A stretch of DNA of 64,000 bases from Candidatus Aenigmatarchaeota archaeon (GTDB lineage Archaea > Aenigmatarchaeota > Aenigmatarchaeia > GW2011-AR5). Where the stretch lies: contig JACPJW010000001.1 of the NCBI GenBank assembly GCA_016187335.1, forward strand, positions 404,170-468,169, written 5' to 3'. Under the pieces are notes generated by a model. The model was not told the origin of the DNA and searched no databases. It worked only from the letters and a program-made list of their open reading frames with translations. Each line of letters opens with the position of its first letter. Position 1 is the stretch's first letter. This document shows, piece by piece, positions 3,805 through 56,509 of this stretch. The translations under genes were made by a program, and so were the position numbers.

Positions 3805-4947
3805 TCACCTGAACTTTCTCAGCTGCCCGCTTTTCTTGGCGGCTTCGTGCCTTTGTACCTTCCCGTATTTTTTCTTTATTTCCCGTTCCAGCTTGCCCAG
3901 AACATCCTGCGCAACGTCAAGAGGCTTCCAGCCCATTGAGTGAGACACGAAAAGCCCCAGCGGCGTGCCTATTCTCGCGCGCATCACATAGCGGATTTTC
4001 TTATCGCCACCGCCATGGTCGTTCTGCCTCTCTACATGAACAAAGAGATATTGTACGCTGTCCATCATCCTCCCGATTTTCTGGACAAATCTTGTTGTTG
4101 CCTCGTCCACGCCGGCAATCAGTTCGCTGCTTTCGCCGTGAAGCCCAGTGACTTGCACGTAAACCTGTTTTTTAGGGCCTGAAACGAGCAGTTCAAGGAT
4201 ATCCTTTGGGGTTATTATTCCCGGCTCGCCGTTCATGACGATAACTTCTTCGCTTTTCTGCAGTAAGTCCAAAGCCCTTTCCAGAGGAGAGTTTTCTTTC
4301 AGTATGGCAGCAGCATGCATGAAAGATTCCACGCCAGCACTTTCAGTGGACATCTTTTCGCTGGCGCCCCGCTCCTTTGTTTTTCCTCTCATCTCCATTT
4401 TTTCTTTTCCTTCGAGCAGCTTTATCATGTCCAGCGTCCCTACGACCCCGAGAACCTTTTGGCCGTCGATAACAGGGACGCGCGATACGTTTTTGTTGAA
4501 CATGATTTTTTTGACTTTCCCGGCATTGTCACCTTTCGACACGCACTCACACTTGACAGCAATATCCCCGCAGGTTTTCTTCGTGTTCATCAGTTTTGAT
4601 GCAACCTTGACAACATCATATTCGGAAACAATACCCACCAGATTCCCTTTGTCCACAACAGGAACAGCCCTTAATCCCGTGTTCAGTAGGAGTTCTATGA
4701 TTTTCTGCAAGTCATGCTCCGGCGAAGCAGTGGAAGTGCTCGTTACGTAGTTCTCAACCTTTGTTGACTGTATGTCTATGTCCTTTGTAACAATGTTTTT
4801 CAATTCAAGCAGCCCGAGAACATTCTTCCCTTCAACGACAGGAAGCCGGTGGATATTGTATTTTTTCATCTTGGCCAATGCCGTGTTCAATGTGTCGCCC
4901 CTTCCGCAGGTTATCACGTTTCTGGTCATGATTTCGCTTACTTTCAT
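3805..4947 (-). CDS. CBS-domain protein (tandem CBS pairs plus C-terminal domain)
   Basis: 380 aa; repeated CBS-like segments (RLPVV, RAVPVVD, RVPVID with hydrophobic cores). Confidence 0.7.
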   Translation of the reverse strand: MKVSEIMTRNVITCGRGDTLNTALAKMKKYNIHRLPVVEGKNVLGLLELKNIVTKDIDIQSTKVENYVTSTSTASPEHDLQKIIELLLNTGLRAVPVVDKGNLVGIVSEYDVVKVASKLMNTKKTCGDIAVKCECVSKGDNAGKVKKIMFNKNVSRVPVIDGQKVLGVVGTLDMIKLLEGKEKMEMRGKTKERGASEKMSTESAGVESFMHAAAILKENSPLERALDLLQKSEEVIVMNGEPGIITPKDILELLVSGPKKQVYVQVTGLHGESSELIAGVDEATTRFVQKIGRMMDSVQYLFVHVERQNDHGGGDKKIRYVMRARIGTPLGLFVSHSMGWKPLDVAQDVLGKLEREIKKKYGKVQRHEAAKKSGQLRKFR

Positions 4948-4970
4948 GAAAACACCTAGGGTTTATGCCT

Positions 4971-4989
4971 TACTCTATAGAATAGAGTA
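4971..4989. promoter_or_regulatory. Perfect inverted repeat TACTCTAT-AGA-ATAGAGTA in divergent promoter region
   Basis: Lies between divergently transcribed CBS gene and DAHP synthase gene, next to A/T-rich TATA-like AAATAAATTTATA. Confidence 0.4.
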
Positions 4990-5054
4990 AATAAATTTAT
5001 ACAGATGAAATCTGGGAAAAATTTCTTTTTAAGGTTAATTGTTGTCGTTTATTT

Positions 5055-6335
5055 ATGGCTAAAGACGGTAAATCCAAAAAAGAACATGTAAGAGTCATGG
5101 TAAGAAATTTTGAAGTAGGTAGTGACGAATTATTCATAATAGCAGGCCCTTGTTCTGTTGAAAGCCGAGACCATATCATAGAAATGGCTTATTTAGTTAG
5201 AGGTGCTGGTGCTGATGCCCTACGTGGCGGTGCTTTCAAACCACGCACAGAAGCTGGTAAATTTGATGGCTTGAAAGAAAATGGTTTAAGGTATCTGGTT
5301 GAAGCTAGAGAAAAGACAGGATTGCCGATAGTTACTGAGATAATGGCAATAGAAGATATCCCATTATTTCAACAATACGGTGTTGATGTATATCAAGTAG
5401 GAACAAGAAATGCCCAGAACTTCCCCCTATTACATGCACTCGGAGATCTTGGTGTAACTGTTTTGCTGAAGAGAGGAATGGGAAACAAAGTTGAGGAATG
5501 GCTAGGTGCTGCAAGTCATGTAGTTTCAAGAAGGAATAAAAATCTGATTTTGTGTGAACGAGGAGTGTCTACATTTGATTCTAAGTTATTCAGAAACATG
5601 GCGGATATTGCAGGAATGGCTTACGCAGAAATGGAAGATAAATATCCGGTTTTATTTGACCCAAGCCACGCAACCGGTATTAGAAAACTTGTTCGTCCAA
5701 TGTCTCGCGCTGCTGTTACAGCAGGCGCTGACGGGCTTTTAATAGAAGTTCATGATGATCCGAATTACGCAAAAACAGATGGTCAACAGAGCATATACCC
5801 ACGTGAGCTTGAATTTTTAATAAAGGAAGCTAGGCGACTTAGAGCAGAATATATTGATTCGACGGCAGGACATGAAAAATGGATGGAAAAGCTGCAACCT
5901 AACATGACAATATACTTTCAGAAGGAATATCTAGATGATGTATGCGCTTTATTGGGATCTGATGCAGAGAGATTGAGGGTCAGGTCATACGGAGAAGACA
6001 CAGGAATTCTTCAGGCAAGGGTAAAGACAGGTCATGTAGGAAAATTAAAACAAAAAGGCGGTTATGCTATCGGAAGACTTTCGATGTGGAGTTCAGGTCC
6101 TGGAGAACCAGCTACAATACCGATGGCGAGTGTTGAGGCAGGGGGTCAACCAAAAACAATTCTAACCCTTTACGACAAAGAATTATTAGAAGACGCAGGT
6201 AAAAAGACAATAGACCAACGATACACACATCTTAGAAGATTACAAGTGAGACAATCGCACCCGGGAGATTTAGAACTTATAGCAAAAGCCTTTACGACTT
6301 ATACGGATAGACCTCTTATTCTATATCAACCATAG
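5055..6335 (+). CDS. 3-deoxy-7-phosphoheptulonate (DAHP) synthase, KDO8P-synthase-like class, with ~165 aa C-terminal extension
   Basis: 426 aa; FIIAGPCSVES and DPSHATG motifs typical of class I-beta DAHP synthase; codon third positions visibly more A/T-rich than neighbours. Confidence 0.75.
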   Translation: MAKDGKSKKEHVRVMVRNFEVGSDELFIIAGPCSVESRDHIIEMAYLVRGAGADALRGGAFKPRTEAGKFDGLKENGLRYLVEAREKTGLPIVTEIMAIEDIPLFQQYGVDVYQVGTRNAQNFPLLHALGDLGVTVLLKRGMGNKVEEWLGAASHVVSRRNKNLILCERGVSTFDSKLFRNMADIAGMAYAEMEDKYPVLFDPSHATGIRKLVRPMSRAAVTAGADGLLIEVHDDPNYAKTDGQQSIYPRELEFLIKEARRLRAEYIDSTAGHEKWMEKLQPNMTIYFQKEYLDDVCALLGSDAERLRVRSYGEDTGILQARVKTGHVGKLKQKGGYAIGRLSMWSSGPGEPATIPMASVEAGGQPKTILTLYDKELLEDAGKKTIDQRYTHLRRLQVRQSHPGDLELIAKAFTTYTDRPLILYQP

Positions 6336-6944
6336 TCAAGGCTTATGTCTTGTAATAGCGTAGTAGGTCACGTCTCCTTCGTTATCCACAATCGCCCATA
6401 ACATCCTTGCTCGTATGTTGTGGGCAAGCCTGACAGAGCGCGAAAGTTCCTGGAACGACATGGTGAAATCCTCCGGCACCGAGAAAACTATCCATTTCGT
6501 GTGCTCTTTGGCGGATTTCGGCCCTTTCTTCAGCTGCACGCCCCTTTCATACACGCGGAAGTCGCAGCCGAACTTGAATCCTGTCCTGACAAGCAGCCCG
6601 CGCTCCCTGAGGTCTTCGTAAACGCGGTAGCGCTCCGTGAACCTTTTGTCCAGAGCAGAAGAATGCCTGAACAGCTCGTCGAATGTTATTTGTTTCTTGC
6701 TGCTGTCAAAGACCCTTATCCTGCCGCGCTTCAGCAGCAGGCACGCTTCTACCAGAGCCAGTTCAAGCCTGTCAGGAAGAATTTTGCCGTAATAGCCGGG
6801 CTCGTAAACGCTTTCAAAGTTTTTCCATGCAACTGCTTTGTTCTCTTCCAGCGTTGTATCCACAACTTCTTTGAAAGGCTCCGGCTCCACGTATTCCGGT
6901 CTATCCTCTTCAGAATCATGCTTTTTCTTGGACATTTTGAACAC
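6336..6944 (-). CDS. endA: tRNA-splicing endonuclease subunit
   Basis: 202 aa; GFKFGCDFRVYERG and EHTKW segments match the EndA catalytic-domain fold (Tyr/His/Lys region). Confidence 0.7.
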   Translation of the reverse strand: MFKMSKKKHDSEEDRPEYVEPEPFKEVVDTTLEENKAVAWKNFESVYEPGYYGKILPDRLELALVEACLLLKRGRIRVFDSSKKQITFDELFRHSSALDKRFTERYRVYEDLRERGLLVRTGFKFGCDFRVYERGVQLKKGPKSAKEHTKWIVFSVPEDFTMSFQELSRSVRLAHNIRARMLWAIVDNEGDVTYYAITRHKP

Positions 6945-7743: not shown

Positions 7744-7980
7744 TGGGAAGGGAGGGATTTCCAGAACTTTTCATCGTTTTCCTCGAAGAACATCAGTTCT
7801 TCGGTATCTCGGAGAACTATCGTTCTCCGCAGATGATCGAACTTTTCTGAAAAGTTCGTTTGGACCCTCGACATTCCCGGCGTAGCACCAATCAAGTGCT
7901 ATGCTCCACGGTCTTCAGCCGTGTGCTCTCCCAGGCTTTGCCAACCGAAAAAATCATTCTCGGTTTTGAGCTACCTTCCC
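7744..7980 (-). tRNA. tRNA-Phe (anticodon GAA) with three putative introns (D-loop, variable loop, T-loop)
   Basis: Minus-strand acceptor GGGAAGG/CCTTCCC with discriminator A; D-stem GCTC/GAGC with AGCCUGGGA loop; anticodon arm CACGG-CUGAAGA-CCGTG; exons sum to about 73 nt; T-loop junction uncertain. Confidence 0.5.
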
Positions 7981-8399
7981 ATGGATGGAAAATATACTTT
8001 TTTCGTTTTCAAAGCTTCCAACGCTATTTTTACCGGTTCGAAAAGCGGTTTAGGCAGATTTTTCAGGTCAAACCACTTAAGTTCGCTGATATTTTCTTTG
8101 TCGACAATCCTTGGCTTGCCGGATTTTATTTTCGCAGTAAATTCCACATCAACGTAGTGTTTTTTGCCGTATTTCATTATGTCGCTGATGCACAGCAGCC
8201 TTAGATTACCGACTTCAAGTCCGACCTCTTCCTTTACCTCTCTCTTGGCGCATTCTTCCAGCGTCTCGCCAAATTCAACATGGCCGCCGAACCCTGACCA
8301 TTCTCCTTCGCCGTGAGAGCCCTTTCTCCTGCCCAGCAAAATCTTGTTGCCCTGTATTATCTGGCATCCTACGCCTACCAGAGGCCTTTCCTTTCTCAT
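7971..8399 (-). CDS. NUDIX hydrolase
   Basis: Nudix box GGHVEFGETLEECAKREVKEEVG; start taken at the internal Met (MRKERPL) because the track ORF extends over an upstream tRNA. Confidence 0.75.
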   Translation of the reverse strand: MRKERPLVGVGCQIIQGNKILLGRRKGSHGEGEWSGFGGHVEFGETLEECAKREVKEEVGLEVGNLRLLCISDIMKYGKKHYVDVEFTAKIKSGKPRIVDKENISELKWFDLKNLPKPLFEPVKIALEALKTKKVYFPSMGR

Positions 8400-8402
8400 G
8401 AG

Positions 8403-8521
8403 CGCCCCGGGACGGACTCGAACCGTCGACCTTCTGCAATTAGTCAAGAAATCCAAAAACTTGCTTGACTGTTAACAGCCAGACGCTTTAGGCGTCTATC
8501 TACCTGCTGAGCTACCAGGGC
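8403..8521 (-). tRNA. tRNA, anticodon unresolved, with D-arm intron and a second 27-nt hairpin intron
   Basis: Minus-strand 5' GCCCTGG TAGCTCAGCAGGTAG and 3' GACGG-TTCGAGT-CCGTC-CCGGGGC-G; removing a 19-nt hairpin restores D-stem GAGC; two parses give 73-nt exons but neither yields a canonical anticodon loop. Confidence 0.5.
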
Positions 8522-9431: not shown

Positions 9432-12146
9432 TTAATCCAGGAAATCGCCCTTCTTCAGCTTATTAGGAAGGTAGGTCTCGGACATGAACTTAAGGCCGCG
9501 GTGCGACAAAGCTTCTATCTCGGCTTTTATTCCTTTTTCTATCATCAGGTTGATTTCCTTCTTCCATCTCGGGTTCTTGCTAAACCACTCGTAGTTGAGT
9601 AGTTCCTTCGCGCGCTTTATGTCAACTTCCTTGCATTTTATTGTCGCTTTTTTCAGGTCATACTCAAATATATCCGATATAGTAAGACCTATGTATCTGG
9701 CTTCCGGTGTCGCAATCCGATCTGAGACGTGAGCTAGGCTTATGGATCCGGATTTGATAACTGAATAAATATAGAAGCCGTACGAATCACTGTCGCAGCA
9801 TACATATACAGGCAGCTTGTGATCTTGGTTCAGCCTTTGTATCAGCAGCCTTGTTCCGCGTGATGGCTGCCCGCCTGTGCCGATCAAAACGCACTTCTGT
9901 TTCTGCCAGAACTTGTCCTCATGAAGCCGCTCAAAGCCTGCGTTCTTCTCCACGACCAAGACAAAGTCCGCGTTGACTTTTTTGAAATCTATTTCATCCA
10001 CGGTGCTCGGTATGGACCATCCCCCGCTTCCGAGCTTTGACCAGTCTATGCTGTCGCCGCGGTCTTCAATAATAACGTTGCCGGCGACAATGCCCTTTCT
10101 GTCGGTGGTGAGGTGCAATTGCTCGCGCAGAACGTCTATAGCCACTTCTATGTCAACAATTATAGGGTCAGAATTATGTAGAATTATAAATCCATTACCA
10201 CCAATGAAATTCTCAGTAGGTTCGACTGAAAGATCAACTGTATATTCAGGAGTTGGAGCGTCATTTATTTCAACTATCTTGTCCCACATAATGTCACTAT
10301 TAGCTATGGTTTCAAGTTCGGATACCAGCTGTAAATCTGGAGAATACTTTTGTAACTGCATCAAGGCGTTATATAACACAGGTCTGCTTATCGATTCGTT
10401 TTTATTTTCTATATAACTCCATGAAAAGTGGTTCCATTCAACACGATCCTTACAGGACTTTCTGACTTTTTCTACCAATTTCCCTATGTTTGGTATCCTG
10501 TCAGAAGATACGTCGTGTTTCCGCGGCTTACTGAATCTTTTATCATTGATTATTTCAGCCATCAATTTTACATCTTCTCTATTACCTATTCTAATTTCAT
10601 ATGCGTTATGGTGATTAGGATTTTGGACGCTTCTTTTATAGCGATAAATTCTTGCAAAAATTCCAAGCCTAAGCAGTAAAAATACCAATCCGTTAGCCAG
10701 CTTTTCGCTAGTTGTGTGGTACCTTAATCTAAATTTTGGAAGAAAAGTACTACCGTCTCCAAGCATAAACGAGAAAAGAAACATCTGTATACAATTTTCA
10801 GGTGAATCAAGCAAAACACGCGGTATTTCTTTATTCCATGCTCTGCAAGGCTTATACCCAATAACATAAGTCAATATGTGACTCAAAGTATCGTAACCTA
10901 CATTTAGCTTATAAACTCCATCTTTACCTAAACGTATCTTTCCGCTTACACAGCTTTTACCAAATGATTTTTCAAAGCAAATCATAAACTGCTTGAGAAG
11001 CTCTGAAGATTTGTTAGAAATAGCTACATGGTATGATTTTCGTGGTTCAAAAAGTGAATGCGAGCCTTCGCTCAAAAGAAGCCCTAGTACAAATCCTAAA
11101 TTTTCATCTTTTTTTATTAAAGCGTTGTAATAGTTCTTTGCACCCCTTCTTCCAATTTTTATTTTAGGAAGCAGATCTGAAATATCAATTCCGGTCGTTT
11201 TTACGACTTTAATTGGAATTGTTTTCCAGTTAATCCAGTTGGCTTTAACGTCAGACCATACATTCTTGTATCCGAAGTCATTTGAAATATTTTTTAGCTT
11301 ATCATTACCTATAAGCCTGATTATTTCTTTTATCGTGTCTTTATCCGATTTTATGTAAAATTCTTTTAATACACTTTCAGGGCAATTTTCAATAAGCTTT
11401 TCTAAAATATTTATATGATCAGAATTAACACCGACTTCTATTTTTCTTGGGATGGCTATCCAGTCTCCTATCTTTAGTTCTGATGTTTTTATGGATACAG
11501 GTTTTCCTTCAGAATTTGTAAACAAGCTGTGAGATTTAGTTACTTTGACACGCCTGCCACTTGATGTGATTATTTCCTTTACAATGTTAGGCGGGTGTTT
11601 CATTACCATCAGAACTTTCTGCTCCTTAATCCTGTAATTTTCATCGAAAGCGCAAACCTTAATGTCGCCAACTAAAATCTTCTTTTTATTACCATCATCA
11701 TAAATAATTCTCCCAAATTTTTCAGCATGGTCTACGACTTCGCTTGCTTGAGCTATTCTGAGTTCATCGTTTATTCTTACCAACAAAGGTTCATCGGGGC
11801 ATACAGACTCGCTCTGCTCGTCAAAGGTATTCTCGTTGCTGTCCGGCAGTGTCCTTTTCAGGTTGTAGTACATGTCTCGGATGCTGGCATGGATTTTCTC
11901 ATCAATGAGCGATTTACAGAAAGCACCGACCATAAGCGTCTGCATGAACTTCTTGGAGTGCGCGACGTTGAAGTAATACCTTTTTGCTGTCTTGGTGCCA
12001 AGCCTGAGCTGGCCGGTTTTCCTGTCGTAAACTACGTTGGAAAGAGCGCGTATTGGTATCTCTATGTTCGGGTTCTCGCCTTTCTCTATGTCATGCACGA
12101 CTTTCTTGCCCAGAACATTCAGTTCCTTTCTTACGTCTTTTTCCAT
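9432..12146 (-). CDS. top6A: DNA topoisomerase VI subunit A (Spo11-like) interrupted by an intein
   Basis: 904 aa; extein N-part (IPIRALSNVVYD...RDMYY) and C-part (WSKLGSGGWSIPS, Toprim LIGTGGQPSRGTR) match Top6A; central 543 aa has intein/LAGLIDADG blocks. Confidence 0.85.
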   Translation of the reverse strand: MEKDVRKELNVLGKKVVHDIEKGENPNIEIPIRALSNVVYDRKTGQLRLGTKTAKRYYFNVAHSKKFMQTLMVGAFCKSLIDEKIHASIRDMYYNLKRTLPDSNENTFDEQSESVCPDEPLLVRINDELRIAQASEVVDHAEKFGRIIYDDGNKKKILVGDIKVCAFDENYRIKEQKVLMVMKHPPNIVKEIITSSGRRVKVTKSHSLFTNSEGKPVSIKTSELKIGDWIAIPRKIEVGVNSDHINILEKLIENCPESVLKEFYIKSDKDTIKEIIRLIGNDKLKNISNDFGYKNVWSDVKANWINWKTIPIKVVKTTGIDISDLLPKIKIGRRGAKNYYNALIKKDENLGFVLGLLLSEGSHSLFEPRKSYHVAISNKSSELLKQFMICFEKSFGKSCVSGKIRLGKDGVYKLNVGYDTLSHILTYVIGYKPCRAWNKEIPRVLLDSPENCIQMFLFSFMLGDGSTFLPKFRLRYHTTSEKLANGLVFLLLRLGIFARIYRYKRSVQNPNHHNAYEIRIGNREDVKLMAEIINDKRFSKPRKHDVSSDRIPNIGKLVEKVRKSCKDRVEWNHFSWSYIENKNESISRPVLYNALMQLQKYSPDLQLVSELETIANSDIMWDKIVEINDAPTPEYTVDLSVEPTENFIGGNGFIILHNSDPIIVDIEVAIDVLREQLHLTTDRKGIVAGNVIIEDRGDSIDWSKLGSGGWSIPSTVDEIDFKKVNADFVLVVEKNAGFERLHEDKFWQKQKCVLIGTGGQPSRGTRLLIQRLNQDHKLPVYVCCDSDSYGFYIYSVIKSGSISLAHVSDRIATPEARYIGLTISDIFEYDLKKATIKCKEVDIKRAKELLNYEWFSKNPRWKKEINLMIEKGIKAEIEALSHRGLKFMSETYLPNKLKKGDFLD
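10173..11801 (-). mobile_element. Intein with LAGLIDADG homing-endonuclease domain inside top6A
   Basis: Begins with Cys after ...DEQSESV, block B GRRVKVTKSHSLFT, LAGLIDADG-like LGFVLGLLLSEGS and FLFSFMLGDGS, ends GFIILHN followed by Ser; region is A/T-rich relative to exteins. Confidence 0.7.
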
Positions 12147-15336: not shown

Positions 15337-15392
15337 GCGATGAAATTTGCTGTAAAGTATAAGAACACATGACGGATACATTTTTTTGACAG

Positions 15393-15473
15393 AACTTTTT
15401 CCTAAAAAGTTCTTTTTGATTAAACTTTTTCCTAAAAAGTTCTTTTTGATTAAACTTTTTCCTAAAAAGTTTA
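15393..15473. repeat. Tandem array (about 2.7 copies) of 30-bp unit AACTTTTTCCTAAAAAGTTCTTTTTGATTA
   Basis: Direct repeats read from sequence; each unit contains the palindrome AACTTTTT-CCT-AAAAAGTT; lies immediately upstream of the zinc-ribbon gene start. Confidence 0.85.
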
Positions 15474-28827: not shown

Positions 28828-28940
28828 GGGCTTGTAGTCTAGAGACCCTTTAGAAAAAGCGTCTACGAAAAGGGTTGGAAAATGGTTATGACGTCGCCTT
28901 CACACGGCGAAGGTCGGCGGTTCGAATCCGCCCGAGCCCA
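28828..28940 (+). tRNA. tRNA-Val (anticodon CAC) with 40-nt D-loop intron
   Basis: GGGCTTG-TA-GTCT-AG [intron 28843-28882] TGGTTA-TGAC-G-TCGCC-TTCACAC-GGCGA-AGGTC-GGCGG-TTCGAAT-CCGCC-CGAGCCC-A; exons sum to 73 nt. Confidence 0.8.
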
Positions 28941-35903: not shown

Positions 35904-38900
35904 TTACTTTATTTTCTTTATCTCTATACCTATTTTCCTGCCTTCAAAGTCCAGTTTTTCCCCTTCCGCCTTCGCGAACACGACCTTCGCCGCCCCCACT
36001 TCGTTCTTTATTTCTTTTTCCCATTTCTTCAGTTCCCCGGCCCCTTCTATTTTCAAGGCAATTTTGTCCATGACAACAAGCCCTGATTTCTTGCGCATAT
36101 CCTGCACTTTTCTGACAACCTCGCGGAGCAGGGCCTCTTTTTTCAGCTCGTCGGTGAGCAGCGTGTCCAGTTCCAGCTTGCCGCCGTCAAAGGGAACGCC
36201 ATTGTTCGTGTTTGCAAAAACAGCGGCTTTGACATTGCACATATTCTTTATTATTTCTGCAAAAGGCTTGAGATTCTCTTTGCTGTCCACTGTAAGCTTT
36301 GCCAGGGGCCACCTTATTTTTATGTTGCTTTCATGCCTTTGCGAGTTGGATGCTTCGACAAGGTTTTTTACGATATTCATGGCTTTCTCCGCCTTTGCGC
36401 TGATGTATTTTGAATCGTACTTAGGCCAGTCCCTGGTATGCACGGATTCCTTTTCGCCGAGGATTTCGAGGTTTATCTGCTCGGCGAGATACGGCGTTAT
36501 AGGCGCTAAAAGCTGCGATGTTTTTTCTGCTATCTCGTATAAGGTGTAAAAGGCCGCTTCCTTGTCTTTCCCTGAATACGCCGGCCATACGCGGTCCCGG
36601 ATCAGCTTTATGTACCACCTTGAAAAGTCGTTTACTAGGAAATCATGCAGCTCTGTTACGGCCTTGTGGCCGTTGTAGCTGCAGAAATGCTGGGTGCAGT
36701 TCTTTATGGTGGTGTTCAGGCGCGAAAGAATCCATTTGTCCTCTATATTCAGTTTTTTTGGCATTGAACCGCTTGACGCGTCGGTCTGTTTCGGTTTTGT
36801 TGCGTAGGTCTTCACGAAATTAAAGCTGTTTTCTATCACAATAAGAGACCTCGCAATGGCTTCAACGTCCGGCCACTTGAAGTAGAAGTCATCCCACGGC
36901 GCGCTTGACAGCAGATAGAAGCGAAGCACGTCCCGGCCGTATTTTTTTATAATGTCCTCCGGCTCGACAATATTTCCTTTGCTCTTTGACATTTTCACGC
37001 CGTGAGCGTCAAGTATGAAGCCGTGGAAAAGTATGTTCGTGAAGGGCTTCTCATCAAATGTTATTACCGACGTTATCAGCTCGGCGTTCCACCAGCCTCT
37101 GATTTGATCCGGGCCTTCTGTCTGGAAGTCGCTTGGCCACAGTTTCTTGAACAACGCCTTGTTTTTCGGGTAGCCGAGGGATGCCCATCCGGCAAGGCCG
37201 GCGTCAAACCAGACATCAAGGACATCGGCTATCCGTTTCATCGCAGAGCCGCACCTGCATTTCAAAAAAACGTTATCAATGTAAGGCCTGTGCAAATCAC
37301 GGGGTATTTCCGGCAATTCGTCAGCGGAGCCGATGACCTTGACGCTTTCGCATTTCTCGCATATCCATATCGGCAGCGGTATGCCCCAGTAGCGCTGCCT
37401 TGATATAGGCCAGTCGCCGAGGTTTTCAAGCCAGTTGTTGAACCGTTGCTTTGCCCATTCAGGGTACCAGTTCACATTCTTGTTTTCCTTGATGAGCTTG
37501 TCCCTTATCTTCGTCACGCGGAAGAACCACTGCGACACGGATATCAGCAGCAGGGGAGTGCTGCAGCGCCAGCATTGCGGGTAGTCGTGCGTTATCGTTT
37601 CCTCCTTCAGCAGCAGGTCTTTTTCCTTCAGCAGTTCAATTATTTTTTTGTCGCTTGCCTTGACAGGATTTCCAGCAAAAGCACCGCATTTCTCGTCAAA
37701 AGTGCCGTTGATTTTCACCGGAGATATTATGGGCAATTTGTTTTCCAGACCGACTTTGTAGTCCTCCTGTCCGTGCCCGGGGGCGGTGTGGACAAGCCCG
37801 GTGCCGTCTTCCATGCTCACGTACTGCTCTGAAAGCACAACCTTGTGCGCGCCTTTGAGCTGCTGCTGGAATGTAAAAATGTCCCGGAGCGGATGCTCGT
37901 ATTCTGTCCCAGCCAGCTTTTTTCCGGGAAACGTTTCCACAATGCTGAATGGCAGTCCGGCTTTCTTCATAACAGCTTCAAGAAGCGGCTTTGCCAGGAT
38001 AAGAAATTCAGTTCCACCAGAACTTTCCACCATTACCTTGACATATTCGTGCTTCGGATGCGCCATGATGCCTGTATTAGCTGGTAACGTCCACGGCGTT
38101 GTCGTCCATATGACCAGGAACACGTTTTCTTGTCCTTTCACCGGAAACTTAACATAAATAGAAGGGTCCTTGGCTTTGCTGTATTCTATTTCGTTGTACG
38201 CAACGGCTGTTTCGCAATTATGTGTCAAGAAGCCGTTAGTTATAAAGTTGTGATGAGTTTCAACTGCTATATCACATACTTTCCGTTTCCCCTTATATTT
38301 TATAGAATTTATTTCATCCCAAATAAATCCGTCTCTGAGGTCTTTTGCAGCATTTTTTAACCATGCATCGAATGCAGGGGTATATTTGGCAGCACGAACT
38401 GACTTAGACTTGCCATAAACCACATGCCTTACATAAAGTTCAGGTAAGTTAAGCATAATTGCGATTTTGCTGCAAGGGATCTTAGAATGTCTTAGTGATA
38501 AGATCCTACCTTTCAATTTTCTGTATTGTTTCTCAAGTGATTTTTTGTACAGAAGATAGCCCAAAACATGCGAAGCCCTGATTTTTCTGTATTTACAGTA
38601 CTCGTATCCTAAATACCGTATGAATTTAATGAGGTTGTAATCGTTGCAATCTATACTGATAGTGGTCTTCGATTTTTCTATTTTATTAACAATATTTCTT
38701 TCTGTTTTTATTTCTCCTGTCGATACCCCAAACTTATTGATAAGCGCGCATATCTGTTTTGCAAATTCCATCCCGTTTTCTTCTAGATGTCTATTTTTTG
38801 TAAGGTAAAGCCTCAGGCATTCAAATCCCTTTCCATATTTTCTGGGGCTTATTATCTGGAGTTCGCTTCCGAAGTAAGATGCCAAAAATTCCCTTGTTAA

Positions 38901-40421
38901 TTTTTTATTGGACTTTATCCATTTTGGCACAAATGTCTTTGTTTCCGTCTTTTTTCCTATAGGACAGCCTAGCGTTATAAGCAAAACAGCCAAAGACAAA
39001 GAATAACATCTCATGGATGTTGTAAATCCCTTTATTGCTCTGCCATTTACGACAGATTTAGTTGGCACGGTTGAAATATCCGAATGGCTAAAGCCAAGAA
39101 TCTTTAGGTCTTTTTGGATTTCTTTTAAATCTTCCTCTTTTCCGCAGAAATCTATGCCAAATACCGGGAATTTTCTGTTTTTAGATGTACGTACAACAAT
39201 AGATCCATCACCAAAAATATGACCTGCCAATCTGGCTAAAATAAATGATTTTGTAGATTTACTGTGAAGAGGTATCAGTTCTTTATCTTTCAATTCATTT
39301 ATTATAGAATCGTAGCGCGTAAACGTATTTACTTTTAAAATTTTTGCTACCCATGATTTTGAAACTCTTATTTTGAAGGCGTTTTGTATTTCTTTAATAA
39401 TTTTAGTATATGAATAGTTATTTTTTCTAAGTTCGGCAACAAAGTTCTTAATTTTAATTTTCGAATGACTTGTAAGGTCGTTAAATTTATGCAGATCTCT
39501 GAAAACTATATTTTCTAAGTTCTGCAAAGTAAACATTACATTATTCTCATTTACAAGAGCTTTGCCTGTTTCCGTAATTTCCGGCAGTCTGCTTTCCACA
39601 TTATTATATACGGCCACTTTGGTTCCTATTCTGAGCTTAGAAAGAGTCATCCATCCATCTTGCGTCCAGAACGGATGATCACTCGAAGCGATTAGTTTCT
39701 TTCCTGTTAGCGTTTTTACAAGAAATACATTATCTTCCAATTCCACATAGCCCAGAGGTTTTGCCGTAGTTAGAAGTTTAGAATTAGTATCAACAGCTAC
39801 AACCGTGTTGTGTTTCCAGCAGCCTTTCAGTTCTCCTATTTTTCTTGTTCCCCCTTCAACAAGAATAGTAGAATTAGGATCAACGCATCTCGGGCATACA
39901 TGCACCGGATAAAGACCCTTGTAGAGCAGTCCCTTGTCGTAAGCGGTCTTGAACGTGTGCCACGCGCCCTCTATGTACTCGTTGTTGTACGTTATGTAAG
40001 GGTTGTCCCAGTCCATCCACACGCCAAGATTCAGGAACTGGTTATTCATGACAGAAATGAACTGGCTGACGAACGCCCTGCATTCCTTGTTGAATCTCTC
40101 GACGCCTAGCCTTTCTATATCAGCCTTTGATTTTATCTCCAGTTTTTGCTCGACCTTGTTTTCTATCGGCAGCCCGTGGGTGTCGTAGCCCGGCTGGTCC
40201 CATACGTCGAAGCCGGACATGCGCCAGAATCGGATGTAGCTATCCTTCAATATTTTGTTCCAGGCAGTGCCTATGTGTATGTAGCCCGTGGCGTAAGGCG
40301 GGCCGTCAAGGAAGTAGAATTTCTTCTTTCCTTTTCTTTTTGTCTTGGCCTTCTGGTAAATGCCGTCTTTTGCCCAGAACTCGGCGATTTCTTCTTCTTT
40401 TTTCTTGCGGCTTTCTATCAT
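35904..40421 (-). CDS. ileS: Isoleucyl-tRNA synthetase interrupted by an intein
   Basis: 1505 aa; HIGH (YIHIGT), KMSKS (KMSKSKGN), WPISRQRYWGIPLP; 557-aa insertion between CPR and CETA of the zinc-binding region. Confidence 0.9.
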   Translation of the reverse strand: MIESRKKKEEEIAEFWAKDGIYQKAKTKRKGKKKFYFLDGPPYATGYIHIGTAWNKILKDSYIRFWRMSGFDVWDQPGYDTHGLPIENKVEQKLEIKSKADIERLGVERFNKECRAFVSQFISVMNNQFLNLGVWMDWDNPYITYNNEYIEGAWHTFKTAYDKGLLYKGLYPVHVCPRCVDPNSTILVEGGTRKIGELKGCWKHNTVVAVDTNSKLLTTAKPLGYVELEDNVFLVKTLTGKKLIASSDHPFWTQDGWMTLSKLRIGTKVAVYNNVESRLPEITETGKALVNENNVMFTLQNLENIVFRDLHKFNDLTSHSKIKIKNFVAELRKNNYSYTKIIKEIQNAFKIRVSKSWVAKILKVNTFTRYDSIINELKDKELIPLHSKSTKSFILARLAGHIFGDGSIVVRTSKNRKFPVFGIDFCGKEEDLKEIQKDLKILGFSHSDISTVPTKSVVNGRAIKGFTTSMRCYSLSLAVLLITLGCPIGKKTETKTFVPKWIKSNKKLTREFLASYFGSELQIISPRKYGKGFECLRLYLTKNRHLEENGMEFAKQICALINKFGVSTGEIKTERNIVNKIEKSKTTISIDCNDYNLIKFIRYLGYEYCKYRKIRASHVLGYLLYKKSLEKQYRKLKGRILSLRHSKIPCSKIAIMLNLPELYVRHVVYGKSKSVRAAKYTPAFDAWLKNAAKDLRDGFIWDEINSIKYKGKRKVCDIAVETHHNFITNGFLTHNCETAVAYNEIEYSKAKDPSIYVKFPVKGQENVFLVIWTTTPWTLPANTGIMAHPKHEYVKVMVESSGGTEFLILAKPLLEAVMKKAGLPFSIVETFPGKKLAGTEYEHPLRDIFTFQQQLKGAHKVVLSEQYVSMEDGTGLVHTAPGHGQEDYKVGLENKLPIISPVKINGTFDEKCGAFAGNPVKASDKKIIELLKEKDLLLKEETITHDYPQCWRCSTPLLLISVSQWFFRVTKIRDKLIKENKNVNWYPEWAKQRFNNWLENLGDWPISRQRYWGIPLPIWICEKCESVKVIGSADELPEIPRDLHRPYIDNVFLKCRCGSAMKRIADVLDVWFDAGLAGWASLGYPKNKALFKKLWPSDFQTEGPDQIRGWWNAELITSVITFDEKPFTNILFHGFILDAHGVKMSKSKGNIVEPEDIIKKYGRDVLRFYLLSSAPWDDFYFKWPDVEAIARSLIVIENSFNFVKTYATKPKQTDASSGSMPKKLNIEDKWILSRLNTTIKNCTQHFCSYNGHKAVTELHDFLVNDFSRWYIKLIRDRVWPAYSGKDKEAAFYTLYEIAEKTSQLLAPITPYLAEQINLEILGEKESVHTRDWPKYDSKYISAKAEKAMNIVKNLVEASNSQRHESNIKIRWPLAKLTVDSKENLKPFAEIIKNMCNVKAAVFANTNNGVPFDGGKLELDTLLTDELKKEALLREVVRKVQDMRKKSGLVVMDKIALKIEGAGELKKWEKEIKNEVGAAKVVFAKAEGEKLDFEGRKIGIEIKKIK
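38217..39887 (-). mobile_element. Intein with LAGLIDADG homing-endonuclease domain inside ileS
   Basis: Starts CVDPNSTILVEGG, contains ILARLAGHIFGDGSI, ends FLTHN followed by Cys; A/T-rich relative to exteins. Confidence 0.7.
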
Positions 40422-41360: not shown

Positions 41361-42248
41361 TCAATAACATAAATTCAAGCCAAGATGTCTGTCCAACTGT
41401 TCTTTTGCCATTCTTTGTTCTCTGTTGTTAAGATGCCAATATCGAAATGATTCTCTACGACAAAGATCCGTTCCTTCGTAGCATTCCAATAAATGCGGAT
41501 ACCCTGCGCCTATTATTCTCGGCTTCCCACCGTATTGGGAAGCCACGATTATTGGCGTGTCAAGGCTGTTTGGCGACAAGTTTGCAGGATAGAAAGTGAT
41601 GTGCATTTTTGCCGGGTCAAATTCGAAATAGGGCACTATGGTAAATCCATTTCTCTTGTAATCAAGCTCTACAGGCCTTTGTTGTGCTCTTTTCCCCCGT
41701 CGCCTCAATCCTTCGACAAGATTTCTGTAAAACTTGGAAGTTTTTACAGGCGATGCCAACAGTGGCATGTTTGCACTCTTAACATATCCGCTTGGTGTAT
41801 CATAATTTGGTTCGATTTCACCAAAGCGGAAGGAATACCAGAAGAAGTGCTTACCGGTAGTTTCTACTGCAATGCCTCTTATGTGAGGAGTTTCATAAGA
41901 TGATGGCGGAAAGCCAAATTCATCCCTTCCTGAAATATCTAGTCGGGGCCAATGAGATGCCGGCTTAACAGAAATAAAACATGGGACATTCAATCCATCT
42001 ATATTGACGTCTCTGACCAATATAGGAACATCATTTCTTGTCCACAGGCGAAATTCCTTCTCATCTTTATCCCCACGTCTGTTAATGAATACATGCCACT
42101 TAACTGTTGTCAGGCCTGCGCTGAATTCATCTTCTGTAAAAATTCGCCTTCCTTCAAAACCAAGCTGCCACCAGAATAAGTACCTTTTGTCTATTATCTT
42201 TTCCCCATCTAGTTTGTCAACTAGGCTTCTGTCAATCATATATAACAA
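41361..42248 (-). CDS. Hypothetical protein (A/T-rich gene beside tRNA-His)
   Basis: 295 aa; no recognised motif; no tyrosine-recombinase signature seen. Confidence 0.45.
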   Translation of the reverse strand: MLYMIDRSLVDKLDGEKIIDKRYLFWWQLGFEGRRIFTEDEFSAGLTTVKWHVFINRRGDKDEKEFRLWTRNDVPILVRDVNIDGLNVPCFISVKPASHWPRLDISGRDEFGFPPSSYETPHIRGIAVETTGKHFFWYSFRFGEIEPNYDTPSGYVKSANMPLLASPVKTSKFYRNLVEGLRRRGKRAQQRPVELDYKRNGFTIVPYFEFDPAKMHITFYPANLSPNSLDTPIIVASQYGGKPRIIGAGYPHLLECYEGTDLCRRESFRYWHLNNREQRMAKEQLDRHLGLNLCY

Positions 42249-42300
42249 GAATCAGGAAAATATTTAGCTGTAAAATAAACCACAGAAAATAAAATCAGCC

Positions 42301-42576
42301 CTATCCAGTCCTCTTTATCACGTGCCAGCCGAACTCGGTTTTCACGGGCTGGGAAATCTGGTCCTTTTCCAGAGCGAATGCAGCCATCTCGAACGTCCTG
42401 ACCATCATGCCCCTTCCAAAAGAACCAAGGTCTCCGCCATGCTTTCTTGACGGGCATAAAGAATGCTGCTGCGCAAGCTCCGCGAAGCTCTCGCCTTTCT
42501 TGATCTTGTCAAGGATAAGCTTTACTTCCTGCTCAGTTTTCACAAGGATGTGCGAGCATCGCACTTGGGATGGCAT
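42301..42576 (-). CDS. Parvulin-type peptidyl-prolyl cis-trans isomerase
   Basis: 91 aa; CSHILVKT, GGDLGSFGRGMMV, TEFGWHVIKR. Confidence 0.8.
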   Translation of the reverse strand: MPSQVRCSHILVKTEQEVKLILDKIKKGESFAELAQQHSLCPSRKHGGDLGSFGRGMMVRTFEMAAFALEKDQISQPVKTEFGWHVIKRTG

Positions 42577-42696
42577 CGTTCAATTTACCCACAAAAACTT
42601 TATATATTTCTTAGTAGGTTAATACAGACGGTGACAGAATGACCGGCTCAAGAAGGGATCTACTTCACTCGGCGCAGGAAGCGCGGTTCAGTTAGT

Positions 42697-42870
42697 TTAC
42701 TTAATTCTCAAAACAGGTTTTCTGTCACCATTGATGACCGCGGAAGGATATTCATCCCGGCAGAGATACGAAGGTCTTTCGGAATGACCGCAGGCGAGAC
42801 GCTGTTCCTTTACCCGATTACTTCTGAGAATGCTGTTTTGATTAAGAGAGGTGTTGGAAATGCTAAATGA
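42697..42870 (+). CDS. AbrB/SpoVT (MazE-like) swapped-hairpin small protein, start codon unclear
   Basis: Hand translation ...SVTIDDRGRIFIPAEIRRSFGMTAGETLFLYPITSENAVLIKRG...; no in-frame ATG/GTG/TTG upstream of the domain before a TGA at about 42640. Confidence 0.35.
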   Translation, partial: LLNSQNRFSVTIDDRGRIFIPAEIRRSFGMTAGETLFLYPITSENAVLIKRGVGNAK

Positions 42871-43495
42871 TTGTCTACTTTTCATATTCGATCTTGATGG
42901 AACGCTGTATTCTAAGGATAGGGAAAAAAATTACTACAGAGAGCTTCAAAAATTGAGGAAAAGATTCATTGCTAAAACATTAGGCGTACCATTGAAAGAA
43001 GCGGATAGAATTCTTGCAGGTCTAATCAGCAATTATGGTGAAAATATAGATATCACCTTAGAAACCGAATATGGTGTACCAAAGCCGAGATACTATGCAG
43101 AAACTGCAGGTTCTGTTCCTGTTGAAGACATAATTTCTTATGACCCAAAACTACGTTGCATCTTATGTCAAATAGACTCTACGAAATCTGTTTTGACAAA
43201 TGCACCTAGTGTCTGGGCAGAAAAAGCGATAGGACAGCTAGGAATTGCAGACCAGTTTGGCTTGGTAATGACATGTGATGACGGCATCGTAAAGCCGCAG
43301 GAAGAAGCCTTTCTAAGGGTATGCAGAGGCGCCGCTGTGGAACCAAAAAGAGCCATTGCCGTAGGAGATAACCCTCAACGGGACTTATACGTTCCAAGAA
43401 AGCTCGGGATGAAAACTGTTTCTGTGGGTGTTTTTGACACAAATGCAGATTTCTTCATAGATTCCATTTACGGGTTGCCAGAAATTTTGAGGTGA
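42851..43495 (+). CDS. HAD-superfamily hydrolase
   Basis: 214 aa; motif I FIFDLDGTLYS, motif IV AVGDNPQRD; A/T-rich codons. Confidence 0.7.
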   Translation: MLEMLNDCLLFIFDLDGTLYSKDREKNYYRELQKLRKRFIAKTLGVPLKEADRILAGLISNYGENIDITLETEYGVPKPRYYAETAGSVPVEDIISYDPKLRCILCQIDSTKSVLTNAPSVWAEKAIGQLGIADQFGLVMTCDDGIVKPQEEAFLRVCRGAAVEPKRAIAVGDNPQRDLYVPRKLGMKTVSVGVFDTNADFFIDSIYGLPEILR

Positions 43496-48374: not shown

Positions 48375-48962
48375 GTGGTTAGAATGCCCAATGAAGGTTC
48401 AGGTCTAATCGTATTTCTTAATGGCACAAGCAGTTCTGGAAAAACCAGTATAGCTGCTGAGCTGACCAGAACACTGTTTGGCTACGAGTACATGGGGGTA
48501 GATGAATATTTAACGCGTGACAGAAATTTAGACGAACAACTTCAAAGACAGGATGAGCAAGGCATAGTTAAAGCGGCTACAGATGCCATTTATAATTTCC
48601 ACAACTCAATTGCGGCCAGGGCTGCTGCAGGACGGAACGTTGTCGCGGATCATGTTCTTTGGGATTCCGAACTGACAGAGCACGCCGCGAGAACCCTAGG
48701 GCCTTACCATGTCCTTCTCGTGGGCGTATATTGCCCTCTTGATATCGCAAAGGAGAGGGAAAAGAAACGTGGTGACAGAATTCTAGGGATTGTGCAATGT
48801 CAATTTCCGGTTGTTCATGAAGGCAAGCTATATGATGTGACGGTCGATACTTCTGTTTTGAGACCCGAGCAGTGCGCAACAGAAATTATAGACGCAATTA
48901 ATAGTAGGCAGTATATTTCTCGGCCTACTCGTGAAAAATTTGTTGTACCAACTGAATTATAA
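48375..48962 (+). CDS. P-loop kinase of the chloramphenicol-phosphotransferase-like family
   Basis: 195 aa; Walker A FLNGTSSSGKTSIA; overall CPT-like layout; A/T-rich codons. Confidence 0.5.
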   Translation: MVRMPNEGSGLIVFLNGTSSSGKTSIAAELTRTLFGYEYMGVDEYLTRDRNLDEQLQRQDEQGIVKAATDAIYNFHNSIAARAAAGRNVVADHVLWDSELTEHAARTLGPYHVLLVGVYCPLDIAKEREKKRGDRILGIVQCQFPVVHEGKLYDVTVDTSVLRPEQCATEIIDAINSRQYISRPTREKFVVPTEL

Positions 48963-49000
48963 ATAATAAGAGAAAGAAATCAAGGAAAACAAAGGAGAGG

Positions 49001-49321
49001 TTGGTCTTGTCTATGGACATAGAGTTTTGTGGTTGCGGCGGCATGCTTGCGCCTGCCGGAAAGGGATTGCTAAGGTGCAGGTCCTGCGGCAAGGAACTGG
49101 AAAAAAAATTTCATGGCAAAATAACGGCAAAGTCCGAGAAAAAGGAAATCGTCGTGATAGAAGACAACGCTCCTGATCTGCCGACAACTGACAAGGAATG
49201 CCCGAAGTGCAAGCATGGAAAGGCTTACTGGTGGCTCATCCAGACAAGGAGCGCGGACGAGCCGCCCACGCAGTTCTTCCGATGCATAAAGTGCAGGCAC
49301 GTGTGGCGGGAGTACAAGTGA
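49001..49321 (+). CDS. tfs: Transcription factor S / RNA polymerase subunit M (TFIIS-type zinc ribbon)
   Basis: 106 aa; N-terminal CxxC ribbon and C-terminal CPKC...QTRSADEPPTQFFRCIKCRHVWRE with acidic hairpin. Confidence 0.75.
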   Translation: MVLSMDIEFCGCGGMLAPAGKGLLRCRSCGKELEKKFHGKITAKSEKKEIVVIEDNAPDLPTTDKECPKCKHGKAYWWLIQTRSADEPPTQFFRCIKCRHVWREYK

Positions 49322-49394
49322 TTTTTTCGCAGTCTTCACGTGATTAATTAAAGTTTTCAATTTCCTTTAAGAAAATTGTTTCCAAAGGAAATTC

Positions 49395-50465
49395 ATGAAT
49401 TCTTCAGATGCACTTCTCAGGGAGCTTTCTCCTTATTTCATACCGCCTGAAAAGACCCGTGCAAGGCAGCGTTTCGGCGGCTTTGATGCGGCGAAAACAA
49501 CATTCAGGGATGCGAAGGTCATCGTATACGGCGTGCCGTTTGAAGGCACACAGACATATCATGCGGGCAGTCACCTCGGGCCGTGGGCAATCAGGGACGT
49601 AACGGGCAACCAGCTTGAACCCTTTGTAATCGACCAGGGAATCGATCCTTATGCCGCAGTCGGAGTTTTTGATATCGGCGACTTCAAACTTCGCGTTTAT
49701 AGAAACGATAGAAAACTGATTTATGATGTAATGCATCCTTCTGTCAGGGCAACCAAAAGGCAGATAGAAGCAGCCAAAGCCAGAGTAAACAGGGCTGTTG
49801 AAAAGCTAGGTAGCCTGGAAAGAATTACCGAAATGCTGAGGAATGAAGGCAAAGTTCCGCTCATGCTTGGAGGCGAGCATCTGGTTTCTTTGTGGCCTAT
49901 CAGGGGCGTTTCCAGAGAAAATCCTGTAGTTCTTCATTTTGACGCTCATATGGACATGAAAAGACAGTATTTAGGCGTCGTTTATTCTCATACAACACCG
50001 ATGTATCATGTGATTTACGGCGACAAGCCTGTTGAGGGCAGGGATTTTGTCCAGATAGGAATAAGGCAGGCGTCACCTGATGAGATTGGTAACGCCAAGG
50101 AAAAAGGCGTAAATGTTTTTTATTCGCTGAAACACACATGGAGAGGAATAGAATCGCAGTTTTCGGATGAAATGATAGCTGATGTGAAAACCTTTGTAAG
50201 GGAAATCACGCATGGCAGGCGGGTTTACGTGACATTTGATATGGACGTTTTGGATTGCCCTTACGTCCCATTCAGTGGAACTCCCGAGCCTTTTGGAATA
50301 ACTCCGCTACAGGCTTACAAAATATTTCAGTCAATAGATGACGGTGCCGAAATAATAGGCATGGATTTTGTTGAAACAAGTTCTGATGGCAAAAGCACAA
50401 TAGAAGGAGCTGTTGCCTCGCATCTGATTCTAAGAATGCTCTGCCACCCTTCACTGAGGCGCTAA
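49395..50465 (+). CDS. Arginase/agmatinase-family ureohydrolase
   Basis: 356 aa; manganese-binding motifs GGEHLVS, HFDAHMD, TFDMDVLD. Confidence 0.8.
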   Translation: MNSSDALLRELSPYFIPPEKTRARQRFGGFDAAKTTFRDAKVIVYGVPFEGTQTYHAGSHLGPWAIRDVTGNQLEPFVIDQGIDPYAAVGVFDIGDFKLRVYRNDRKLIYDVMHPSVRATKRQIEAAKARVNRAVEKLGSLERITEMLRNEGKVPLMLGGEHLVSLWPIRGVSRENPVVLHFDAHMDMKRQYLGVVYSHTTPMYHVIYGDKPVEGRDFVQIGIRQASPDEIGNAKEKGVNVFYSLKHTWRGIESQFSDEMIADVKTFVREITHGRRVYVTFDMDVLDCPYVPFSGTPEPFGITPLQAYKIFQSIDDGAEIIGMDFVETSSDGKSTIEGAVASHLILRMLCHPSLRR

Positions 50466-56404: not shown

Positions 56405-56509
56405 GCCGGCGTCGCATAATCTGGTGGTGCACTGATTGCATGCGAAGCAAGTGTATGTCTCGAAAACCAGCGGGCTCTGCCCATGCAGGTTCAAATCCTG
56501 CCGCCGGCG
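56405..56509 (+). tRNA. tRNA, anticodon unresolved, probably intron-containing
   Basis: Acceptor GCCGGCG/CGCCGGC with discriminator G; T-arm GCAGG-TTCAAAT-CCTGC; internal 73 nt could not be folded into a unique cloverleaf. Confidence 0.5.

Follow-up and report, generated by a model that had tools for sequence, protein, structure and literature searches.

A predicted type Ibeta DAHP synthase with a rare, undescribed C-terminal domain in Aenigmarchaeota

DAHP synthase (DAHPS, also DAH7PS) is a textbook case of allostery evolving through domain recruitment. Among solved structures, those nearest to the protein described here are type Ibeta enzymes from Thermotoga maritima, Pyrococcus furiosus and Aeropyrum pernix. 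Those of P. furiosus (1ZCO/4C1K) and A. pernix (1VS1) are archaeal and metal-dependent, and end at a barrel of about 260 residues. The T. maritima type (1RZM/3PG9; PF18152 + PF00793) carries in addition an N-terminal ferredoxin-like (FL), ACT-like domain of 75-80 residues, which also occurs among the DAHPS homologues that we found. Other described type Ibeta add-ons are AroQ chorismate mutases, placed N- or C-terminally (PMC8408635). In the enzymes of Prevotella nigrescens and Porphyromonas gingivalis (PF00793 + PF01817), this AroQ three-helix bundle follows barrel helix alpha8 and controls DAH7PS activity through interdomain contacts (PMC8408635).

The protein analyzed here, encoded in a 64-kb stretch of archaeal DNA (the window), shares features with each of these types. 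Its barrel resembles those of P. furiosus and A. pernix, whose structures align over query residues 5-260 (E 1e-58 to 1e-59), but the chain runs 163 residues further. With the T. maritima type it has in common the barrel, the Cys/His/Glu/Asp site, the KPRT motif and the plan of one discrete extra domain on an otherwise minimal barrel. However, the extra domain is C-terminal and spans 160 residues. Its first ~65 residues are predicted to form a beta-alpha-beta-beta-alpha-beta unit, an ACT-like order that is also that of the T. maritima FL domain. A relocated FL domain was nevertheless rejected: there is no profile-profile similarity (0.3% probability in hhalign against 27 FL domains) and no PF18152 match. 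As in the P. nigrescens and P. gingivalis enzymes, the add-on comes after alpha8, but it is predicted to be alpha/beta with eight strands rather than a helical bundle. An AroQ chorismate mutase was rejected on this ground, together with the lack of a match to PF01817 or to any solved chorismate mutase. What is known at this locus is the enzyme; what is new is a rare, uncharacterized add-on domain of single origin.

The gene and its two domains

The window holds genes for tRNA synthetases, topoisomerase VI, thermosome, fibrillarin/Nop5, eIF1A and NMD3, along with a type IV pilus-like cluster and mevalonate-pathway kinases, and is typical DPANN-archaeal sequence from an Aenigmarchaeota MAG. A database protein 100% identical to the DAHPS is named '3-deoxy-7-phosphoheptulonate synthase [Candidatus Aenigmarchaeota archaeon]'. 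The gene was recovered with the same flanks in independent assemblies from several sequencing runs, which rules out an assembly chimera or artefact. The features of the locus are as follows.

3805-4947, minus strand: CBS-domain gene, left flank of the DAHPS gene
4948-5054, plus strand: upstream intergenic region, with an AT-rich, TATA-like stretch TAAATTTATA at 4992-5001
5055-6335, plus strand: complete open reading frame of the predicted two-domain DAHPS, 426 aa plus stop
5070-5843, plus strand: type Ibeta DAHPS TIM-barrel domain, residues 6-263, from profiles and the alignment to T. maritima 1RZM
5799-5891, plus strand: predicted long helix, residues 249-279, from AlphaFold2 secondary structure
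5844-6332, plus strand: C-terminal domain of an undescribed family, residues 264-426, from the family alignment and predicted structure
6336-6944, minus strand: tRNA-splicing endonuclease (EndA) gene, right flank, convergent with the DAHPS gene

The stop codons of the DAHPS and EndA genes directly abut. The TATA-like stretch TAAATTTATA is a putative promoter; the relatives discussed below share a conserved element, TTAAAT-N-CTTTAATTT, upstream of DAHPS, to which the upstream region in the window is dissimilar. Amino-acid biosynthesis is generally thought to be absent from DPANN archaea, and we found no other shikimate-pathway gene in the window or in any gene context retrieved from a relative.

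Rfam detected three tRNAs in the window that ARAGORN missed, at 8403-8521 (minus strand), 28872-28940 (plus strand) and 56405-56509 (plus strand). Two of these measure 105-119 nt, a length that makes introns probable. One of the three, situated some 1.5 kb from the EndA gene, overlaps the 5' end of a called NUDIX open reading frame (7971-8456), whose true start is probably further downstream.

A sequence-only reading of this DNA had called the gene a DAHP synthase, and profile searches confirm the assignment. The protein matches NCBIfam TIGR01361 (DAHP synthase, B. subtilis type) over residues 6-260 with 287.8 bits, against a cutoff of 267.75, and Pfam DAHP_synth_1 (PF00793) over residues 20-253 with an E-value of 4.6e-54 and 183.6 bits, against a cutoff of 25.5. 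Models of KDO8P synthase (KDO8PS) score far under their cutoffs. The best PDB match of the barrel is the T. maritima type Ibeta enzyme (E 1e-62), in which Cys102 of 1RZM aligns with C33. This cysteine and the other predicted metal ligands, H205, E231 and D242, are present, as is the KPRT motif (K62-P63-R64-T65), and all are invariant in a six-member family alignment. We take the roles of these residues, in the metal site and, for KPRT, in separating DAHPS from KDO8PS, to be those of the published structures. Judged by sequence, the protein carries at residues 6-263 a type Ibeta DAHP synthase that is metal-dependent and intact, and this barrel should make DAHP from PEP and erythrose-4-phosphate.

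The alignment to every solved DAHP synthase ends between query residues 250 and 273. Beyond this point, the earlier reading had reported about 165 residues with no recognized motif, and our searches agree. Residues ~264-426 (163 aa) matched no Pfam or NCBIfam family at E<=10, nor did those of the 17 family members; the domain profile matched no PDB sequence, and no structural match was returned among solved folds or viral folds. The AlphaFold2 model of the domain, built from six sequences, is of moderate confidence (pLDDT 78, pTM 0.73; pLDDT 81 for the full-length model). In the predicted structure, the helix at residues 249-279 would be barrel helix alpha8, extended as a linker to the C-terminal domain. 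Residues G326, A338, G340, R395, A412 and L421 of the domain are conserved. Only three columns are invariant across the 17 members, R395 being the sole polar one, while within the close family one Arg is invariant and Tyr, Thr and Asp positions are conserved. Sequence change is faster in the extension than in the barrel. By these comparisons the C-terminal domain is an undescribed family that matches nothing known.

Family distribution, gene position and trees

Five full-length homologues were found, of 408-414 aa and 49-55% identity, all of them covering the C-terminal domain; no homologue among 5.8 billion clusters exceeded 55% identity over the full length. With the C-terminal domain profile, HMMER was run exhaustively against 1.84 billion cluster representatives and returned 14 proteins. 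They are DAHPS fusions, whole (P0122, P0125, P0130) or fragmentary, standalone versions of 176-199 aa, and P0121, whose barrel is degenerate; a further search extended the standalones to 202 aa. Most of the family members found are DAHPS fusions. From this search, the domain is conserved and rare. A neighbor-joining (NJ) tree of 122 catalytic domains, computed without the C-terminal extension, unites every fusion protein in a single clade at 200/200 bootstraps; the link of this clade to sequences of Micrarchaeota and Nanoarchaeota is weak. It follows that the fusion has a single origin and that its two parts have evolved together.

P0121, a metagenomic protein of 385 aa, keeps the C-terminal domain. 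From its barrel the catalytic Cys, KPRT, Lys, Arg, His, Glu and Asp are all gone, and by its sequence it may be a pseudoenzyme. The standalone proteins have as neighbors Orc1/Cdc6, a winged-helix-like protein, LeuRS or a large surface protein, not metabolic or aromatic-pathway genes. Some are very basic, such as P0127 with its tail ...HPPRRRPR. Around the distant fusions (L046-L048) and the standalones (L009, L044, L045, L049/L050) we found no aromatic-pathway gene and no conserved partner gene, with the exception of a secreted, C-terminally anchored protein of ~735 aa directly upstream of the standalone in L044 (6911-9675) and L009 (451-3223). This surface protein has faint Ig-like (CARDB) matches, both contigs are higher-GC archaeal, and the two genes may form a conserved pair. 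A 332-aa gene upstream of the standalone P0131 was tested as a split-off barrel and rejected.

Among related Aenigmarchaeota a common synteny can be recognized, GlyRS-CBS-EndA...TopoVI-KH-eIF1A-NMD3-w351, where w351 is the window's 351-aa gene. The window's gene order is kept from GlyRS to the pilus cluster in L001 and in L010, the GTDB representative Candidatus Aenigmatarchaeota archaeon RIFCSPLOWO2_01_FULL_48_10. The window genome does not itself belong to the GTDB representatives, since searching those genomes with the single protein gave no hit. The position of DAHPS varies within this frame. In four relatives (L001, L007, L008 and L010) the fusion gene sits between NMD3 and the orthologue of w351, and in L001 and L010 the CBS-domain gene directly abuts EndA. 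In the window NMD3 and w351 are adjacent, and DAHPS lies about 9 kb away, between the CBS-domain gene and EndA. L012, the organism of P0002, shows a third gene context. The corresponding site in the window is:

15382-15470, no strand: 'empty site' at the NMD3/w351 junction, where four relatives carry DAHPS

This junction is filled, at 15393-15471, by a perfect tandem repeat (30 bp x 2.6), AACTTTTTCCTAAAAAGTTCTTTTTGATTA; each unit contains a near-palindrome, AACTTTTTCCTAAAAAGTT, and no other strong tandem repeat occurs in the window. The repeat could be a scar left by excision or relocation, or else a terminator or promoter that was duplicated. At DAHPS itself, we found no flanking direct or inverted repeats in the window, and no adjoining tRNA, integrase or mobile-element gene.

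By pairwise identity, the window genome is the outgroup whichever gene is compared, DAHPS or a flank gene. For DAHPS they are 49-52% between the window and the four relatives and 61-74% among those four; for eIF1A, 58-61% and 71-93%; for NMD3, 32-34% and 58-74%. DAHPS is therefore an old resident of the clade. Within the four-genome clade, the DAHPS tree joins L010 with L007 (98%), whereas the flank trees (eIF1A+NMD3; w351) join L010 with L001 (99-100%), all by NJ with few taxa. This conflict suggests in-place replacement of DAHPS among related lineages. Given the variable position and the supported conflict, DAHPS is not strictly vertical: it has moved or been replaced within the clade, as seen from its other site here and from the disagreement between its tree and those of the flanks among the relatives.

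Third-position composition and the case for recent import

The sequence-only reading had also described codon third positions as A/T-rich relative to the flanking genes, and the calculation bears this out. The GC3 of DAHPS is 0.275, against 0.582 expected for its amino acids at the codon usage of the other window genes. The deficit amounts to -13.5 binomial SD and to -3.4 SD of the between-gene spread. Of the 54 coding units of the window DAHPS is the lowest, below even the homing intein in the TopoVIA gene (0.301). Low GC3 runs uniformly through the catalytic part (0.264) and the C-terminal part (0.292), while GC1 (0.548) and GC2 (0.40) are ordinary. A strand effect was rejected as the cause because G+C content is strand-symmetric, and amino-acid composition because the value predicted from it is 0.58.

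In all eight genomes examined, three distant fusions among them, the GC3 of DAHPS is below that of its neighbors:

W (the window): DAHPS 0.275, neighbors 0.56
L001: DAHPS 0.341, neighbors about 0.53
L010: DAHPS 0.372, neighbors about 0.60
L007: DAHPS 0.265, neighbors about 0.43
L012: DAHPS 0.321, neighbors about 0.43
L048: DAHPS 0.444, neighbors about 0.57
L046: DAHPS 0.376, neighbors 0.484
L047: DAHPS 0.238, neighbors 0.287

Low GC3 is therefore a trait of the family; it cannot be a leftover of recent import that has yet to ameliorate. Synonymous sites are presumably saturated once proteins share only about 50% identity, so that a deficit that persists is a property of the gene and not an import residue. 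The most likely cause would be either that codon selection is weak in a poorly expressed accessory gene exposed to AT-biased mutation, or that the gene circulates within a lower-GC gene pool of related lineages. Other window genes with low GC3 (0.35-0.45), at 41361-43495 and 48375-50465, encode a 295-aa protein of no assigned family, a HAD hydrolase, a chloramphenicol-phosphotransferase-like kinase, an SLOG-family protein and an arginase-family protein. It seems that genes with low GC3 in this genome are, in general, accessory or metabolic ones.

The competing explanation is that DAHPS was recently imported from an AT-rich donor and inserted between the CBS-domain gene and EndA, its low GC3 being un-ameliorated donor codon usage. 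Having the lowest GC3 in the window, comparable to that of a mobile intein, fits such an event, as do the adjoining CBS and EndA genes in L001 and L010, where DAHPS lies elsewhere, the lack in the window of the promoter-like element conserved in relatives, and the conflict between the DAHPS and flank trees within the clade. Over the barrel, moreover, the nearest sequence is P0002/L012 (66-67% identity), from an archaeon of lower GC in which the gene has a third context. However, no homologue above 55% full-length identity appeared among the 5.8 billion clusters, the divergence of DAHPS from its relatives matches that of the flanks with the window genome as outgroup throughout, the GC3 deficit recurs in every host genome, and neither repeats nor a tRNA or integrase lie beside the gene. 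We consider recent import improbable.

Horizontal acquisition, as proposed from the letters alone, is thus upheld in one sense and not in another. The different site and the tree conflict speak for mobility within the clade; homologues in related Aenigmarchaeota speak against a recent foreign origin. GC3 does lie outside the local distribution, and the nearest homologues are in closely related archaea. We see no evidence of recent import from outside the clade, and regard the gene as a long-standing accessory gene of one Aenigmarchaeota clade. An extreme GC3 outlier need not imply recent foreign origin.

The TopoVIA gene (9432-12146, minus strand) contains an AT-rich intein with a LAGLIDADG homing endonuclease at approximately 10173-11777 (GC3 0.30), and its orthologues in L001 and L010 are without an intein. 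A low-GC stretch at 38-40 kb arises because a 1505-aa class I aminoacyl-tRNA synthetase (IleRS-like; 35904-40421, minus strand) carries an intein splicing domain. In L001, a 374-aa open reading frame beside the TopoVIA gene (4061-5185; GC 0.29, GC3 0.21) is absent from the window and is probably a lineage-specific insertion.

Possible roles of the C-terminal domain

The explanation that we favor overall, and consider on balance probable, is that of a two-domain enzyme, encoded by an old accessory gene of one Aenigmarchaeota (DPANN) clade and carrying a bolt-on module. By analogy, the C-terminal domain would be a ligand-sensing, regulatory or oligomerization module that modulates access to the barrel active site, like the ferredoxin-like and chorismate-mutase add-ons elsewhere. 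We propose a sensory or regulatory role only tentatively. It is suggested because the described type Ibeta elaborations are discrete domains that gate or tune the barrel (PMC8408635), and because the extension evolves faster than the barrel, has few invariant columns with a single polar residue, and begins with a predicted ACT-like unit. Counted against it are the lack of a supporting ligand, interface or structural analogue and of nearby shikimate genes. The standalones in non-aromatic neighborhoods and the dead barrel of P0121 also suggest a function that is not tied to DAHP synthase control.

The same observations bear on a reading in which the domain is an autonomous interaction module, binding protein or nucleic acid, that has no part in feedback control; its fusion would then tether or localize the enzyme, or the protein as a whole would moonlight. 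Standalones of 176-202 aa do exist, some very basic, next to genes such as Orc1/Cdc6, the winged-helix-like protein, LeuRS or the surface protein, and P0121 has kept the domain through the loss of every catalytic barrel residue. This reading is at odds with the preponderance of DAHPS fusions and the co-evolution of barrel and domain as one clade. The window's domain, furthermore, is not notably basic, and it has no similarity to known binding folds. We judge an interaction module to be quite unlikely.

A further alternative is that the domain is a second enzyme, a non-orthologous replacement in aromatic biosynthesis, for example a new chorismate mutase in the manner of the AroQ fusions. To our knowledge, many archaeal pathway steps lack recognized enzymes, which we count in its favor. 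C-terminal fusions of catalytic chorismate mutase to DAH7PS are known (PMC8408635), and the invariant Arg and the conserved Tyr, Thr and Asp positions of the close family could suit a catalytic domain. However, neither sequence nor fold resembles AroQ, AroH or any solved enzyme, and the model predicts an alpha/beta fold instead of a helical bundle. R395 is alone among the three invariant columns in being polar, and the standalone homologues lie in non-metabolic neighborhoods. A second enzyme likewise seems to us quite unlikely.

A more far-reaching view is conceivable, if rather doubtful: the domain would be a new, fourth kind of type Ibeta control or partner module, with a fold absent from the PDB and a single origin in DPANN-like archaea, and could work as a standalone or on a dead barrel too. 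If so, it could sense some effector that is not one of the usual aromatic end products, or be a non-orthologous pathway enzyme. In either case it would inform how archaea with reduced genomes regulate or employ a shikimate entry step that is apparently an orphan. Our literature search returned nothing specific on DAHP synthase in DPANN archaea or Aenigmarchaeota. A further, unrelated add-on that lacks a structural analogue would give enzymologists a new system to investigate, and would put a name to a domain family so far without annotation. For the organisms themselves, a lone conserved DAHP synthase in a DPANN lineage, with no pathway gene nearby, raises the question of how it is used there.
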